A stretch of DNA of 64,000 nucleotides from Rubrobacter sp. (GTDB lineage Bacteria > Actinomycetota > Rubrobacteria > Rubrobacterales > Rubrobacteraceae). The stretch is from the NCBI GenBank assembly GCA_035936475.1, contig DASYWA010000084.1:22930-86929 (forward strand). The letters are read 5' to 3'. Position numbers and translations under genes: made by a program. Positions 3 to 5,593 of this stretch are shown one piece after another. The first letter of the stretch is position 1, and each line of letters opens with the position of its first letter. The notes beneath the pieces were generated by a model, which saw only the letters and a list, made by a program, of their open reading frames with translations, was not told the origin of the DNA and did no database searches.

Positions 3-659
3 GTGACGGAGCGCTGGACCGTCGCGCGCCACAGGGGGGCTGCACAAGCCGTGATCTCCTCATCGGGGCCCGCTTTCGTGCTCGACGCCGGGACGGGCAT
101 GTACCTCAACGCCGTGCTCCTCGACCTCCCGCTCGCGCCCAGGGTGCCGGAAGGGGTGAGGGCGAGGGCCGAGCGGGAGTCGGCCGGGGAGCCGAACCCG
201 AGGAGGTCTTCGAGGGAGAGGGAGCTTCGGCTGGTGGGCGCGGACGAACGCAGCTCCATCTGGTCCGGGGAAATGCGCTACCGGACAAGCCTCCTGTACG
301 TGCGCCCGCAGAGGCCCGCGCTCGACCGCGCCATAGCCTTGAGGTCCAGAAAGATAGCCAGGGAGGGCCTCGGGGAGGCGGAGGTCCTGCGGGAGATGGT
401 CGAGGCCGGAGAGGACGTGAACCCCTCCGTCGCCGGCGCCGTCGGCGTCAGGGAGCTCCTGGCCCACCTCTCCGGCCGCCTCACCCTGGCGCAGGCCGAG
501 GACCGCATCGCCGTCCGCACCCGGCAACTCGCCAGGCGGCAGACGCGGTGGTTCGACAAGCTCGCCCGCACCCTGGAGGGACGCGCGACGGTCTCCGTGG
601 TAGAGGGCCCTGGCGACCCCCGTGCATTACATACCATGCATGATACAATGTGGGCATGA
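3..659 (+). CDS. miaA: tRNA dimethylallyltransferase, 5'-partial (runs off window edge)
   Basis: GTGMY, NPRR..RE and TRQLARRQTRWF motifs; directly upstream of hflX, with ATGA overlap. Confidence 0.8.
   Translation: MTERWTVARHRGAAQAVISSSGPAFVLDAGTGMYLNAVLLDLPLAPRVPEGVRARAERESAGEPNPRRSSRERELRLVGADERSSIWSGEMRYRTSLLYVRPQRPALDRAIALRSRKIAREGLGEAEVLREMVEAGEDVNPSVAGAVGVRELLAHLSGRLTLAQAEDRIAVRTRQLARRQTRWFDKLARTLEGRATVSVVEGPGDPRALHTMHDTMWA
641..649 (+). promoter_or_regulatory. Extended -10 (TGaTACAAT) for a probably leaderless hflX transcript
   Basis: TACAAT at 644-649, 6 nt before ATG 656. Confidence 0.5.
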
Positions 660-1963
660 AGGAGAGCAGGGAAGAAGGGGTAGGGACCGAAGTCGGGGCC
701 GAAGCGCGGGGCTTGCTCGTGGGCGCGGGAGAGCCGCGCCACATGGGGGAGTTGGGCCGCCTGGCGACGACGCTCGGGATGGAGGTCGTCGGCGTGCTCG
801 AGCAGGGCCGCAGGGACAACGCGGGCTACGTCGGCCGGGGCAAGCGCGAGGAGTTGCGCGAGCTCGTCGAAGAGACGGGCGCGGACTTCGTCGTGACGGA
901 CGACGAGCTTACGGCGTCCCAGGCCAGGGTGCTTGAGCGGGCGGCCGGCGCCGTCGTCGTCGACAGGACGGAGCTGATCATCCGCATCTTCGAGGTGCAC
1001 GCCGGGGACGCGGCGAGCAGCCTCGAGGTCGAGCTTGCGGACCTCCAGTACCGGCTGCCGAGGGTGAAGGGCCGCAACCCCGAGCTCAGCCGCCTGGGCG
1101 GCGGTCGCGGCGGCGCCGGGGGCGGCGCGAGGCGCGGCAGCGGCGAGCAGCAGCTCGAGTACGACCGCCGCGTCATCCGCGGGCGCATAGACACGATAAA
1201 CCGCAAGCTCGAGCGCGAGAAGACCGGCAGGGAGGTGCGCGGCGCGCGCCTGAGGGAAAGTTCCACCCCGACCGTGGCCCTCGTCGGCTACACCAACGCC
1301 GGCAAGACGACCATCCTCAACGCCCTGAGCGGCGCCGGGAGGTCCACGAAGGACAGGCTCTTCGAGACGCTCGAGACCACCACGCGCCTCGTCGAAGGCG
1401 GCGCCACCGCCAATGGCGCCGTTGGCGGTGGCGCCCACCCGGATTTCGTGGTCACCGACACGGTGGGCTTCATAAGGAAGCTGCCGACCCAGCTCGTCCA
1501 CTCCTTCGCCTCGACCCTCGAGGCTGCCAACCAAGCGGACGTCAGGGTCCTCTGCGCCGACGCCTCGAGCCCCGAGCTCGAAGACGAGATAGCCACCGTC
1601 AGTCGCACGCTCGCCGACGGCACCGGGGACGGATCGGGTGGACCGCCAACGATACTCTGCCTCAACAAGATGGACCTCGTCTCAGAAGAACGGGCCAAGG
1701 AGATAGAGAGGCTCTACCCGGAGGCCGTCCGGATCAGCGCCCTCACGGACGCCGGCCCGCTCCTCGAAGCCATCTACGGTGCGATCTCCTCTGGCCGGGA
1801 GCGGATGGAGGTCCTGATACCCCACGAGGACTACGGTGCAGCCAGCCGCCTCTACGGCCTCGCCGACATCCACGCCCGCCGCGCGACGGACGAGGGCCTC
1901 TGGATGGACGTCAGCCTCCCGCGCGCCGCCGCTGCCAGGTACGCCGCCTACAAAACCCCCTGA
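656..1963 (+). CDS. hflX: GTPase HflX
   Basis: GYTNAGKT, DTVGFIRKLP, NKMD motifs; LEVELA coiled segment; ATG 656 overlaps miaA TGA. Confidence 0.95.
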   Translation: MKESREEGVGTEVGAEARGLLVGAGEPRHMGELGRLATTLGMEVVGVLEQGRRDNAGYVGRGKREELRELVEETGADFVVTDDELTASQARVLERAAGAVVVDRTELIIRIFEVHAGDAASSLEVELADLQYRLPRVKGRNPELSRLGGGRGGAGGGARRGSGEQQLEYDRRVIRGRIDTINRKLEREKTGREVRGARLRESSTPTVALVGYTNAGKTTILNALSGAGRSTKDRLFETLETTTRLVEGGATANGAVGGGAHPDFVVTDTVGFIRKLPTQLVHSFASTLEAANQADVRVLCADASSPELEDEIATVSRTLADGTGDGSGGPPTILCLNKMDLVSEERAKEIERLYPEAVRISALTDAGPLLEAIYGAISSGRERMEVLIPHEDYGAASRLYGLADIHARRATDEGLWMDVSLPRAAAARYAAYKTP

Positions 1964-1995: not shown

Positions 1996-2787
1996 GTGGA
2001 CAAGGATACCCGGACAACTAAACTCCGCCTCTACCCGGAGCACCGCGCGCTGGCAGGTGAGGAGGGGATATACGGGGATCTTGAATTCCCGCCCCCCGAT
2101 TCCCACAAGCTCCCTTACGTGCTGATGAACATGGTCAGTTCTGTGGACGGGAGACCATCCGTCGGGGGAAGGGCCGCGGGCATAGGAAGCCGGACCGACA
2201 GAGAGGCGATGCGGGCGCTCAGGTCTCGCGTGGACGCCGTCATGGTCGGAGCCGGGACCCTGCGCGCAGAGAAGCTCAACCTCGGTCTCGACGATCCCGG
2301 CGACGAACAACCCCTCGCCGTGGTGGTCGCGGGCGCCGGGGGCTTGCCGATAAGAGAACGGCTCGTGGTCGGGCGTCAGCGCGTGATCGTCGCCGCGCCA
2401 GAAGGTTCGCGGCGCATCGCGGAGGAAGGCCACGAGGCAGGCGAAGTCTCCGTGAGGGTTATAGAAACCCCGGGCTCCGGTGGCGGCCGCGCGGACCTGA
2501 GGTGGCTCCTCGGAGTACTCAAGTCCGAATACGGCGTAGATCGCCTGCTGGTGGAAGGCGGCCCGACGCTCAACCGCTCCCTGATAGACGAGGGCTTGGT
2601 TCACGAGCTCTTCCTCACGATCGCCCCGAAGCTGCTCTTGGGCCCGGAGGCCTCCATCCTCTCCGCCGGCCAAAACAACGAACCATGTGGCAGCGGGCCA
2701 CGCGACTTGACGCTCATCGCTGCGCACTCCGCGGCAGATGAGATCTTCCTCAGGTATCGCTTCCAGCAACCTGGGCGCCGCCCCTGA
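1996..2787 (+). CDS. RibD C-terminal domain / pyrimidine reductase (DHFR-fold) family protein
   Basis: MVSSVDG, DAVMVGAGT, LLVEGGPTLN, ELFLTIAP motifs; CATAAT 8 nt upstream of GTG. Confidence 0.8.
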   Translation: MDKDTRTTKLRLYPEHRALAGEEGIYGDLEFPPPDSHKLPYVLMNMVSSVDGRPSVGGRAAGIGSRTDREAMRALRSRVDAVMVGAGTLRAEKLNLGLDDPGDEQPLAVVVAGAGGLPIRERLVVGRQRVIVAAPEGSRRIAEEGHEAGEVSVRVIETPGSGGGRADLRWLLGVLKSEYGVDRLLVEGGPTLNRSLIDEGLVHELFLTIAPKLLLGPEASILSAGQNNEPCGSGPRDLTLIAAHSAADEIFLRYRFQQPGRRP

Positions 2788-2801: not shown

Positions 2802-2829
2802 ACTTCCGAGAATTCCCGTTATGCGAAGT
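2802..2829. other. dif-like recombination site (11-6-11 imperfect palindrome)
   Basis: ACTTCCGAGAA-TTCCCG-TTATGCGAAGT; left arm differs at 1 of 11 positions from B. subtilis dif arm ACTTCCTAGAA; right arm starts TTATG like XerD arms; arms complementary at 8/11. Confidence 0.55.
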
Positions 2830-2889
2830 TCGCATGGGTGAGGGAGGTTCGGCCGCCTCCAAGCTAAGGGAGCAACGTCACTCGTTTGG

Positions 2890-3096
2890 CTATCGCATAC
2901 CCTTTGGGCCACTGCTTCGGCCGCTGCCCAAGAAGTACACGTCTGCCCAAAACGTGGCGCCCATGGAACTAACAAGGTCGACCTGTTCTCTGGAGAGGGA
3001 CAAATTGTAGTCGTTCTCCGAATCGGCGTAGATCACGCACGCGAAGGTGACGAGGTGCTCATCAGCCAGCGCCCTTACCTTTTCGACGTATGGCAT
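2890..3096 (-). pseudogene. Small low-GC ORF, probably a 5'-truncated DUF4279-like protein
   Basis: C-terminal pattern NLSLSREQVDLVSSMGATFWADVY resembles DUF4279 C-termini (recognition only); frame is open upstream only to a TGA at ~3130. Confidence 0.4.
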
Positions 3097-3247
3097 TAGC
3101 CGTTCGATCTCGACCAGCGATTCGTTTTCTCAAGAACCGGTGAGTTGCGGAAGAAACGCCTATACCCTCCCTTTCTCTAGATTTTGTCCGCCTCTAAGCC
3201 TGTTTGAGAGTTGATCTGCTCAGGATCTGCCATAGTTGTGCAGGCTC

Positions 3248-4192
3248 CTATATCGGGAGGGTATTATACTGATATGCCTTGCTGGCCAGTTCCTCGGCGC
3301 GGCGGATGTAGCGCAGGGTGGTCTTGGGATCGGAGTGGCCGAGGAATTGCTGGATGACGAGGAGGGGCGCCTCGTTCACGGCCATGTTGGTGCCTACGGT
3401 GTGGCGGATGGAGTGCGGGCTTATGGGCTTGGTTATGCCGGCGGCGCGGACGTACTTTTTTACTATGTTCTGGACGGAGCGGGTCGTGAGGGGCTTGTCC
3501 TTGCCCACACGGGAGGTCAGGAGGGGCTTGCGGGCGTCCGTGTGGGAGTTGAGGGAGCGGCCTGAGAGGAGGACGTAGCGCTGGACGAGGCGCCAGAGGT
3601 CCGGTGAGATCGGGACGTTGCGGATCTTGTCTCCCTTGCCGAGCACGCGGAGCATGACCGCGTCGTTGCCGGTGTCCTTAAAATCGGAGAGCTTGAGCCC
3701 GACAACCTCGGCCTCGCGCAGGCCGCACCCGGCCATGACCGCGAGCAGGACGTAGTCGCGGTAGTTGTCCGAGCGGGCGGCGTTGAGCATGCGCTGGAGC
3801 TCGTCCTCGGTGAGCACGTTGTAGGCCGGGTCCTGGCGCACGCGCGGGCTCTTGGCGAAGAAGCGCAGGGCCTCCGGGTTGACGGTCGTCGCACCCGTCA
3901 TAAACGTGAAGATCAAAAACCTTCGGAGCACCGCGAGCTTCTTGGCCGCCGTCGCCGCAGCGTAGCTGCTTATCAGGTGCTCCCGGTACAGGGACACATC
4001 CTCCGCTGTCAACCCCGACAGGTCTTTCCCAAGCTCCCCCACCAGGTAGGCGACGAAGAGCCGGATCTCTGTATTATAGGTTTTTATAGTCTGGGGGCTG
4101 GTTAGGGTGCGGAGGTAGAGGGCGATTAGGCGGTCGGTCTCCGGGGAGGTCTTTGCGGGGAGGGCGGGGGCCGGGACCGGGAGGTCAGTCAT
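3248..4192 (-). CDS. Tyrosine recombinase (Xer/integrase family) with intact catalytic residues
   Basis: GLREAE (R), GKGDK (K), HSIRH (H-x-x-R), LGH, TTLRY (Y); N-terminal SAM-like domain; start overlaps apt stop (ATGACTGA). Confidence 0.93.
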   Translation of the reverse strand: MTDLPVPAPALPAKTSPETDRLIALYLRTLTSPQTIKTYNTEIRLFVAYLVGELGKDLSGLTAEDVSLYREHLISSYAAATAAKKLAVLRRFLIFTFMTGATTVNPEALRFFAKSPRVRQDPAYNVLTEDELQRMLNAARSDNYRDYVLLAVMAGCGLREAEVVGLKLSDFKDTGNDAVMLRVLGKGDKIRNVPISPDLWRLVQRYVLLSGRSLNSHTDARKPLLTSRVGKDKPLTTRSVQNIVKKYVRAAGITKPISPHSIRHTVGTNMAVNEAPLLVIQQFLGHSDPKTTLRYIRRAEELASKAYQYNTLPI

Positions 4193-4736
4193 CGGGGGTG
4201 GCGTAGGTTATCAGCGAGACGACCTCGTAGGGGGCGAGGCGGGAGCGGCCGTCTAGGTAGCCGAGCTCTATGAGGAAGGCGACGCCCGCGACCGTTCCGC
4301 CGGCGTTCTCGACGAGGTCGCACATGGCGCGGGCGGTGCCGCCGGTGGCGAGGAGGTCGTCGGCGACGAGGACGCGCGACCCCTCGCGGATGGAATCGGC
4401 GTGGGCCTCCAGGGTGTCGGTGCCGTACTCGAGGTCGTAGGTGGCGGAGATCGTCTTTCGGGGGAGCTTGTTCGGTTTGCGGGCGAGGACGAGACCCTTT
4501 TTTGCCCTGTAGGCCAGCGCGGTACCGAAGACGAAGCCGCGGGCCTCGGCCGAGAGGATGTGGTCGTAGCCGAGGTGCTCGGTGGCGGCGTGGAGGGCGT
4601 CCGTGGCGGCGTGGAGGGCGGGTCCGTCCTCTATTACGGGGGTTATGTCTTTGTAGGAGATGCCGGGTTTGGGGAAGTCTGGGACGGTGCGGATGCGGGA
4701 CCTGACCGTCTTCAGGGCGTCCTCGGGAGCGGGCAT
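4185..4736 (-). CDS. apt: Adenine phosphoribosyltransferase
   Basis: VPDFPKPGI.YKDITP, EARGF, LEYGTD, DDLLATGGT. Confidence 0.97.
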   Translation of the reverse strand: MPAPEDALKTVRSRIRTVPDFPKPGISYKDITPVIEDGPALHAATDALHAATEHLGYDHILSAEARGFVFGTALAYRAKKGLVLARKPNKLPRKTISATYDLEYGTDTLEAHADSIREGSRVLVADDLLATGGTARAMCDLVENAGGTVAGVAFLIELGYLDGRSRLAPYEVVSLITYATPDD

Positions 4737-4738
4737 CC

Positions 4739-5593
4739 TCAGGGGGCGAAGGAGTCTATCACGTTCGCCATCATCAGCTCCTTCATCCGGGAGTCGACGG
4801 AGGCGAGGTGGCGGGCCTTGTTCACGGCCTCCGCGACCCTTCCCTCGTCGCCGCTGCGCAGCTCGGGGTTTACCACCTGCTTAAAGAGGGCGGCCTCGCG
4901 GTCCACGGCGGCCATGATGCCGCGCAGGTGGCGGGGTTGGATCGAGTACTTCGCCATCTCGAGGGCCATGCGCGCGATCTCGGCGTCTCGCTGGGTGAGC
5001 TCGCCGGTGCGCCCGATCACGCCGACCGTCACGAGCTCGTCGACGAAGCGGCTGTCCGTCTCCAAAGTGTCGGCGAGCTCCTCGCGGGTGTAGGTCCTGT
5101 CCTCCAGCACGCGGGAGAGGTCGTTCGCCGAGTCGCCGCCGGTGGAGATACCGCCGCCGCCCTCGATGCGCTTCTTGATCACCTTGAGCGGCAGGTACTC
5201 TTTGTCCTGGAGGGTGAGGATGTACTTTAGGAGCTCGATGTCCTGGCCCGAGAAGAGCCGGTAGCCGCCGCGGGTGCGAGTCAGGTTGATCAGGCGCCGG
5301 CGCTCGAGGTACCGGATCTTGCTGACGGACAGCGTCGGGAACTCGGGCCTCAGACGCTCCACGACCTCGCCTATGGTGTAGCTGTCCTTGGACCCTCCCC
5401 TCCCCCGCATCCCCTGGCCCGACTCGGGGGCCGGTTCGGGGATCGGTTCGTGGGCCGCCAGGCCCCCCGTCGCCTCGTCTTCGGGGGGCACGTTGTCCCC
5501 CCGCGCGGGGATCGGGGCGTCCCCCATGGGATCGTTCCACCTTCTCTGGTTTACGTCTCCGCTCTCCATGGGGTTCGCTCCCATCCTCTCCAT
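4739..5593 (-). CDS. MerR-family transcriptional regulator (FtsR-like)
   Basis: YTIGEVV...VSKIRYLE...RTRGGYRLFS HTH; downstream of GarA-like FHA gene, as in the actinobacterial garA-ftsR cluster. Confidence 0.85.
   Translation of the reverse strand: MERMGANPMESGDVNQRRWNDPMGDAPIPARGDNVPPEDEATGGLAAHEPIPEPAPESGQGMRGRGGSKDSYTIGEVVERLRPEFPTLSVSKIRYLERRRLINLTRTRGGYRLFSGQDIELLKYILTLQDKEYLPLKVIKKRIEGGGGISTGGDSANDLSRVLEDRTYTREELADTLETDSRFVDELVTVGVIGRTGELTQRDAEIARMALEMAKYSIQPRHLRGIMAAVDREAALFKQVVNPELRSGDEGRVAEAVNKARHLASVDSRMKELMMANVIDSFAP

Follow-up and report, generated by a model that had tools for sequence, protein, structure and literature searches.

Does the imperfect palindrome at the point where the genes of a Rubrobacter contig converge act as the chromosomal dif site, and which enzyme would recombine it? 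Nearly all bacteria with circular chromosomes resolve chromosome dimers, and our literature search found no paper describing a Rubrobacter Xer/dif system. A 2011 survey of dif sites does not mention Rubrobacter in those parts of its text and supplements that were examined. A survey of tyrosine recombinases places Rubrobacteria among the classes without an Xer-subgroup protein and suggests that class-specific simple recombinases take the Xer role (10.1101/542381). The DNA analyzed here, called the window, is a 64-kb stretch of the source genome G000 (3.16 Mb in 223 contigs, 68% G+C, and 98% complete) that corresponds to C84:22930-86929. An earlier note, made from the letters of the window, had drawn attention to a dif-like 28-mer next to its left end. 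The 28-mer is very probably the chromosomal dif site of this soil Rubrobacteraceae bacterium, on the grounds that it is an imperfect palindrome of 28 bp, is present as a single copy, coincides with the skew switch, and adjoins an Xer-like gene in a genome that encodes an FtsK with a gamma domain.

Read directly from the window, the site is ACTTCCGAGAATTCCCGTTATGCGAAGT. The 11-6-11 geometry proposed in the earlier note was reproduced as ACTTCCGAGAA-TTCCCG-TTATGCGAAGT, as were the complementarity of the arms at 8/11 positions with its extension by flanking A and T (positions 2801 and 2830) and the overlapping palindrome ATGCGAAGTTCGCAT at 2821-2835. Size and architecture are therefore those of dif sites (about 28 bp, 11-bp imperfect inverted arms, and a center of 6–8 bp). 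The dif arm of Bacillus subtilis is ACTTCCTAGAA, and the left arm matches it at 10 of 11 bases. The features of the locus, together with the repeat arrays of a relative discussed below, are collected in Table 1.

Table 1. Features of the candidate dif locus (window positions) and repeat arrays of the relative G010 (contig positions)
Feature	Position	Strand	Remark
HflX GTPase	650-1963	+	Converges on the dif site from the left
RibD_C-family reductase	1996-2787	+	Stop codon 15 nt from the dif site
Candidate dif site, 11-6-11	2802-2829		Conserved block plus one base per side (A2801, T2830)
Left arm ACTTCCGAGAA, "GAGAA" arm	2802-2812	+	11-mer shared with the dispersed family, where it is the repeated arm
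Central region TTCCCG	2813-2818		Presumed strand-exchange region
Right arm TTATGCGAAGT, "TTAT" arm	2819-2829	+	Alignment with relatives and Frankia alni dif
Strain-specific DNA between the recombinase stop codon and the dif site	2830-3247		Locus comparison
68-aa ORF	2890-3096	−	Without Pfam or NCBIfam match
Xer-like tyrosine recombinase P0001, 314 aa	3248-4192	−	PF00589 and PF02899
Phosphoribosyltransferase	4185-4736	−	Upstream of the recombinase, codirectional
MerR-family gene	4739-5593	−	Upstream of the recombinase, codirectional
G010 array	C7:594,600-618,400		Lower-GC DNA, 64–65% G+C
G010 array	C7:1,020,300-1,080,300		Lower-GC DNA, 64–65% G+C
G010 array	C10:27,800-40,500		Lower-GC DNA, 64–65% G+C
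G010 array	C2:15,500-23,900		Lower-GC DNA, 64–65% G+C

The exact 28-mer occurs once in the window, where no second match with up to three mismatches was found; shuffled sequences gave none either (0/100). The genome-wide search suggested in the earlier note, performed with the degenerate pattern ACTTCNNAGAA-N6-TTNTGNGAAGT, returned one copy in the entire 3.16-Mb genome. The best match of G000 to the B. subtilis dif arms is the site itself (18/22). The possibility that a better dif lies elsewhere was not borne out by searches with the B. subtilis, Frankia, and Escherichia coli sites: no canonical dif was found elsewhere in G000, and no match to the Frankia or E. coli dif was better than that at the site. 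One copy per chromosome, as for dif, was found in the source genome and in most of the relatives sampled. In a sample of 61 genomes of the family, the stringent pattern TTCCGAGAA-N6-TTATNNGAA is present once in 38 and twice in three, whereas the reversed control pattern gave no match in any of them. The remaining 20 genomes, eight of which are among the 38 of high quality, have no exact match and may carry site variants or assembly gaps. Four complete or near-complete relatives have one site position each.

Matches were also observed on secondary contigs of relatives. Exact 24-bp matches are located at G009:C3:147894 and G019:C138:2711, an inverted pair of 24-bp matches with one mismatch at G004:C2:7527-7550 and 148469-148492, and two copies of the 12-bp arm motif only at G003:C4:34880 and 39984. 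These four contigs are probably plasmids or second replicons, on which the dif-like sites may serve in multimer resolution by the host enzyme.

The site is located at a replication terminus as judged by gene convergence and GC skew. On the 120-kb contig C84, 25.7 kb precede the site; 19 of the 20 ORFs in this left part are on the plus strand and most of those on the right are on the minus strand, so the convergence seen within the window holds on the full contig. The terminus position, which the earlier note had derived from 2.8 kb of left context, is supported by the skew of C84 and of relatives. On C84, all seven 4-kb bins up to and including that of the site have positive GC skew, and the cumulative G−C maximum (C84:28,276) is 2.5 kb from the site (C84:25,731). 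The proposed check by cumulative skew gave the same positive-to-negative switch at the site in complete relatives. Over 200 contiguous kb surrounding the site, skew is positive in each of the ten 10-kb bins leading up to it and negative in each of the next ten, in both G014 (maximum at 716,515 and site at 714,974, ~1.5 kb apart) and G015 (maximum at 555,786 and site at 559,434, 3.6 kb apart). For G005, the sampled skew changes sign somewhere from 2.57 to 2.595 Mb, an interval that includes the site (2.5806 Mb). The site of Rubrobacter marinus is at 50.9% of the record; for this genome, skew sampled along the first replichore is noisy. In a search for KOPS-like octamers, the skewed words were mostly G-rich coding-strand words, and no polar motif was separable from coding-strand bias.

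Genes with probable roles in chromosome dimer resolution are found nearby. The ftsK gene lies 10 kb left of the site on the same contig; it is the only one with a gamma domain in the genome (C84:13839-16094, plus strand, ~7–9 kb before the window begins). Together with the recombinase gene and the dif site, it forms a cluster at the terminus.

The position of the palindrome between convergent genes, 15 nt after a stop codon, and its ability to form a short hairpin would also suit a bidirectional transcription terminator. However, the sequence folds no better than shuffled sequences on either strand (z = −0.65 and −0.68), and a terminator scan gave no call. Moreover, conservation goes beyond pairing to the bases themselves, among them a fixed mismatch (G versus T at arm position 9), and a terminator need be neither unique in the genome nor placed at the skew switch. 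We consider this explanation extremely unlikely.

The dif site is 418 bp downstream, on the 3′ side, of a gene for an Xer-like tyrosine recombinase with Phage_integrase and SAM-like N-terminal domains. P0001 scores 151, 148, and 144 bits with the XerC, XerD, and XerA profiles, all below the curated cutoffs (335, 330, and 220 bits, respectively; 267 bits for XerS). Its best solved relative by sequence is E. coli XerD (1a0p), with which the catalytic Arg, Lys, His-x-x-Arg, His, and Tyr align; Arg159, Lys186, His260, Arg263, His286, and Tyr295 are invariant in 22 orthologs. The fold of the predicted structure (moderate confidence, pLDDT 71) is nearest to XerA and XerD. A recombinase of the Xer type that could be cognate to the site is hence encoded, and it is the only Xer-like protein of this 98% complete genome, which has no XerC/XerD pair passing the models. 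The other tyrosine recombinases of G000, sorted by eye on their N-terminal motif as non-Xer integrases, start with G-x-G-E-G-S-I/V-Y...DGRW, which we take to be typical of phage and ICE integrases.

Orthologs of P0001 (68–94% identical) all belong to Rubrobacteraceae, and some have been labeled XerD or XerC by automated pipelines. Of the 46 family genomes in which a match was found, 44 have a single ortholog; the exceptions, G012 and G034, have extra broken pieces. In G012, the second copy (C8:118358-119289) is broken by one TAG and a frame split and lies at a distance of 7 kb from the intact one; in this genome, 26 kb separate the gene from dif.

None of 41 Rubrobacteraceae genomes passes the XerD model, which is passed by 53 of the 81 genomes in a phylum sample. 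Most other Actinomycetota have two Xer matches of 260–373 bits, corresponding to the XerC/XerD pair. The single recombinase appears to have replaced the pair kept by the rest of the phylum, and the absence of XerD-model passes, as judged by profile matches, agrees with the recombinase survey (10.1101/542381). Two observations concern individual genomes of these samples. Tandem XerC/XerD-like genes (253 and 212 bits) are present at G034:C745:389-2214, in a metagenome-assembled Rubrobacteraceae genome of 1070 contigs with 4% contamination, and may be contamination or acquired. Three genomes of 7.5–9.2 Mb (family f20, genus g40) are alone in the phylum sample in having no XerD-model match at E ≤ 1e-30. 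Their size suggests that they are Streptomyces-like with linear chromosomes, in which case dimer resolution would not be needed.

Comparison of 65 related loci showed the conserved order MerR–PRT–Xer–[variable]–dif–RibD_C–HflX. The phosphoribosyltransferase and MerR-family genes are found in 59 and 58 of these loci, respectively, in the same order and on the same strand. The site is downstream of the orthologous recombinase in 43 loci, with sharp edges and nonconserved flanks. HflX and RibD_C are just beyond dif in 30; many of the remaining 35 loci end, or have longer cargo, inside the 3-kb flank. In nine relatives whose recombinases are 77–90% identical to that of the window, all 28 bases are the same.

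Two arm types were distinguished, ACTTCCGAGAA-N6-TTATGCGAAGT (type 1) and GTTTCCGAGAA-N6-TTATCGGAAAC (type 2). In the locus alignment, the two outer bases co-vary on both arms as AC..GT, GT..AC, or AT..AT, while the inner asymmetry is kept, with GAGAA on one arm and TTAT(C/G) on the other. The central six bases differ among relatives (TTACCG, TCCCCG, TTGTAC, TTACAC, and others). Palindromic co-variation of the outer bases is expected if one protein reads both arms, and its combination with the kept asymmetry and the variable center suggests a recombination site whose arms are both recognized by a single protein.

The DNA between the gene and the site is variable. The gap ranges from 12–44 nt to 2.8 kb in most relatives and is rarely 13–55 kb; the smallest gaps (12–17 nt) are those of G014, G030, and G026. 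The site is on the 3′ side of the gene in every case. Gap DNA is unrelated even between relatives with recombinases 88–93% identical to that of the window. The 68-aa ORF in the gap of the window has no homolog in the 65 loci, and the gaps of other genomes contain genes for FemAB-like proteins, an MFS transporter, an ABM monooxygenase, and kinase fragments. An IMEX layout, in which a second, degenerate dif (window 3126-3153) would bound the gap, was considered and rejected. The best matches reached 14–15/22 over 42 loci, and the rate of degenerate sites in the gap (0.24 per kb) was not clearly higher than elsewhere in the loci (0.14 per kb). The layout is unsupported because there is no second dif-like site in the gap and the accessory genes there are ordinary. 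In the whole window, neither tRNA genes nor any Rfam family at gathering score were found.

The hypervariable, strain-specific gap raises the question of whether the pair belongs to a mobile element, as its att site and integrase, or to an integron-like platform rather than to a housekeeping system. The integron-integrase model does match P0001 weakly (TIGR02249, 81.8 bits), and dif-like repeats flank variable gene modules elsewhere. However, this score is far below the cutoff of 265 bits (43 versus 435 bits with NF011946), so that P0001 and the site do not qualify as an integron (IntI/attI/attC), and the site is 3′ of the gene, whereas attI is in the promoter region. The recombinase gene is part of a conserved operon with the same flanking genes in 58–59 of the 65 loci, is present in one copy per genome and always near the terminus, and has no close plasmid relatives (closest ≤33% identical). 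The gap contains ordinary genes and no second dif-like site. A mobile-element origin is accordingly given a very low probability, and we retain the housekeeping dif site.

The other explanation anticipated in the earlier note was that the site is one copy of a dispersed palindromic repeat or att family. Such a family does exist, and it has the same arm. G000 has 99 copies of the arm motif A[CG]TTCNNAGAA versus about eight expected, and iterated nhmmer searches found at least 109 repeat copies on 51 contigs. Each copy starts with one to four 25-nt modules, GCGAA(C/G)TTC(C/G)GAGAAC plus 9–10 variable bases, which are followed by a core, the tail GGTGAATAGGG, and often a G+C-rich hairpin. Examples of cores are ACTTCGGAGAA-CAACCC-TTCTACGAGGT and ACTTCCGAGAA-CGCTTC-TTAGCGGAAGT. 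Among 163 copies from three sources, the last arm and the 11-mer following it show a sharp maximum of dyad symmetry when 6 bp separate them (mean 6.8/11 versus 1.3–4.2 at all other spacings). The commonest spacers (TTCCCC, CACCCC, and TTCCTC) resemble dif central regions, as does TTCCAC. The resolution site of Tn4430 consists of a core and direct-repeat motifs; the Rubrobacter repeats similarly carry extra direct copies of the arm upstream, at 25-nt spacing. The family is real and, by its sequence and geometry, is related to dif. Since the repeats have the dif arm, the recombinase may have many other binding sites.

Genes beside the G000 repeats are ordinary and diverse, without a transposase among the neighbors; example loci are C27:14768-16598, C116:1533-5581, and C110:9837-19574. 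The window itself has no repeats but a weak match on the dif site. Twenty-two copies are within 300 nt of a contig end, and the family therefore probably breaks the assembly. G010, a relative assembled into long contigs, has arrays in which all copies point the same way (19/19, 18/18, 10/10, and 6/6), with one to three genes between copies. The arrays adjoin tRNA-Val, tRNA-Ala, and tRNA-Thr genes as well as phage-type integrases or fragments of these, and about six of the eight non-Xer integrase matches of G010 are in or beside them. A tie of repeat orientation to replication direction was rejected (17 copies agree and 14 disagree with the local skew). Structured RNA was also rejected, given that there was no Rfam match and that the column pairs with the strongest signal reflect variants linked within subfamilies rather than base pairing. 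Spacer and tail showed no complementarity specific to individual copies (z = −1.1), and an apparent hybrid of repeat and dif in G044 proved to be an ordinary four-module repeat.

Gene content between repeats varies. Two relatives lack, at the corresponding site, two genes and three repeats that G000 has at one locus. One of these genes is present, 92% identical, at a different locus of a third relative, again between repeats. The homology breakpoints that could be mapped are few and inconsistent: they fall just after the arm in four cases at one locus, whereas other pairs break at the repeat 5′ edge or show mixed subfamilies. Eighty repeat loci from metagenomes have almost no common flanks. 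No cassette common to G010 and G000 was identifiable between these genomes, which are too divergent for such a comparison. The two represent different genera with core genes about 73% identical, and they share a 603-bp stretch of 96% identity (G000:C94:2002-2603 and G010:C7:1,018,267-1,018,869), which in G010 has tRNA-Val on one side and the first repeat of an array on the other; this stretch looks like a recent transfer.

Whether the dif site is only one degenerate copy of this family, with no role of its own, depends on what the two have in common beyond the arm. The left arm and the right arm's outer seven bases align in register with the consensus of the family, GGGTGAGGGAGG immediately to the right of the site is similar to the family tail, and the family model matches the site (17 bits, E = 0.0056). 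However, the match covers only model positions 18–53 and is among the weakest of the 109; the site lacks the full match of modules, core, and tail, and the family does not have the inner TTATG found in the right arm of the site. Conservation at the orthologous locus extends to 28 of 28 bases, and the site tracks the skew switch. Four complete relatives have dif as a single copy and the family motif at background level; the motif is abundant in others (about 100 repeats in G000 and up to about 130 motif copies in relatives). The locus alignment excludes that the conserved sites in family-free genomes are unrelated sequence. Repeat-rich genomes carry either dif arm type. The earlier alternative was thus correct about the existence of a family with the same arm, but the dif site is not just another copy of it, as judged from the 17-bit match and the single copy in relatives lacking the family. 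We regard the degenerate-copy explanation as highly improbable.

Here, we propose how the dif site would function. An odd number of crossovers between sister chromosomes after replication would produce a dimer, in which the two dif copies would meet at the closing septum. Both 11-bp arms of each copy would be bound by the single Xer-like recombinase, giving four subunits per synapse, and strand exchange across the 6-bp central region would restore the monomers. FtsK, with its gamma domain, is the probable activator and would place the reaction at the terminus. The conserved asymmetry of the arms may set the strand pair exchanged first, as reported for difSL and difH. We infer the binding, cleavage, order of strand exchange, and FtsK dependence of the candidate dif from its sequence and that of its neighbors; the sequence-based criteria for calling dif, each of them, support the assignment.

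As to the repeats, we tentatively raise the possibility, which we consider less probable than not, that they are dif-like core sites at which the housekeeping Xer enzyme inserts, excises, and reshuffles cassettes of one to three genes, perhaps with and perhaps without the island integrases beside the arrays. The dif arm, the dyad peak at 6 bp, the dif-like spacers, the co-orientation, the lower-GC islands, and the variable gene content would all be compatible with this doubtful but possible function. If it were true, Rubrobacteraceae would have an integron-like gene capture run by a housekeeping Xer enzyme, and the arm common to dif and the co-oriented repeats provides a way to ask whether this enzyme drives cassette turnover. 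The dif locus itself would supply the site and the enzyme missing for Rubrobacteria, a class listed without an Xer-subgroup recombinase (10.1101/542381), and would add a lineage to the known single-recombinase Xer systems (XerS, XerH, and XerA). The site could also serve as a precise terminus marker in the fragmented assemblies of these abundant desert-soil, radiation-tolerant bacteria.

Compared with the XerC/XerD–dif systems of other Actinomycetota and Bacillota, the Rubrobacter site is similar in length, geometry, and terminus position, and its right arm agrees with the XerD arm of Frankia alni dif at 9 of 11 positions (PMC3025954). Unlike in those systems, there are no two paralogous recombinases in the genome, and the outer arm bases co-vary as a palindrome instead of forming distinct XerC and XerD arms. 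XerH/difH of epsilon-proteobacteria (PMC5241119) also has one recombinase and a site near its gene, but the similarity of P0001 is weak (29.8 bits to 5jjv) and XerH is longer (354–362 aa). The closest known counterparts of the repeats are the pdif modules of Acinetobacter plasmids (PMC9947245), IMEX elements, and integron attC arrays. The repeats have a dif-like 11-6-11 core and form arrays between one to three accessory genes with modules variable between genomes. The pdif sites alternate in orientation, whereas the Rubrobacter repeats are all co-oriented; no integron integrase or attC features were found with them.

The archaeal XerA/dif system (PMC3646895; structures 4a8e and 5hxy) likewise uses a single recombinase on a 28-bp 11-6-11 site, and XerA is the closest predicted fold to P0001. 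Its profile score of 144 bits is nearly equal to those of XerC and XerD and below the XerA cutoff of 220. XerA is reported to act without FtsK (PMC3646895), whereas the Rubrobacter genome, from a bacterial host, keeps the FtsK gamma domain.

XerS/difSL of streptococci and lactococci (PMC1914069; reviewed in PMC5357621) is alike in having one recombinase whose gene adjoins the site as a module, a terminus position, FtsK, and near-symmetric arms with built-in asymmetry. The left difSL half TTTCCGAAAA resembles TTTCCGAGAA. Adjacency of gene and site has been described as a possible hallmark of single-recombinase systems (PMC5357621), and gene–site linkage of this type is found here (418 bp), whereas gene and site are parted by up to a few kilobases of variable DNA in many Rubrobacter relatives. 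difSL has 31 bp with an 11-bp central region versus 28 bp with 6 bp in the Rubrobacter site, XerS has about 356 aa versus 314 aa, and P0001 scores 87.6 bits with the XerS model (cutoff 267), so neither the XerS model nor the 31-bp site describes the present pair. Belonging to neither family by the curated models, the Rubrobacter pair is regarded as a lineage-specific, single-recombinase Xer/dif module like XerS/difSL and XerA/dif.
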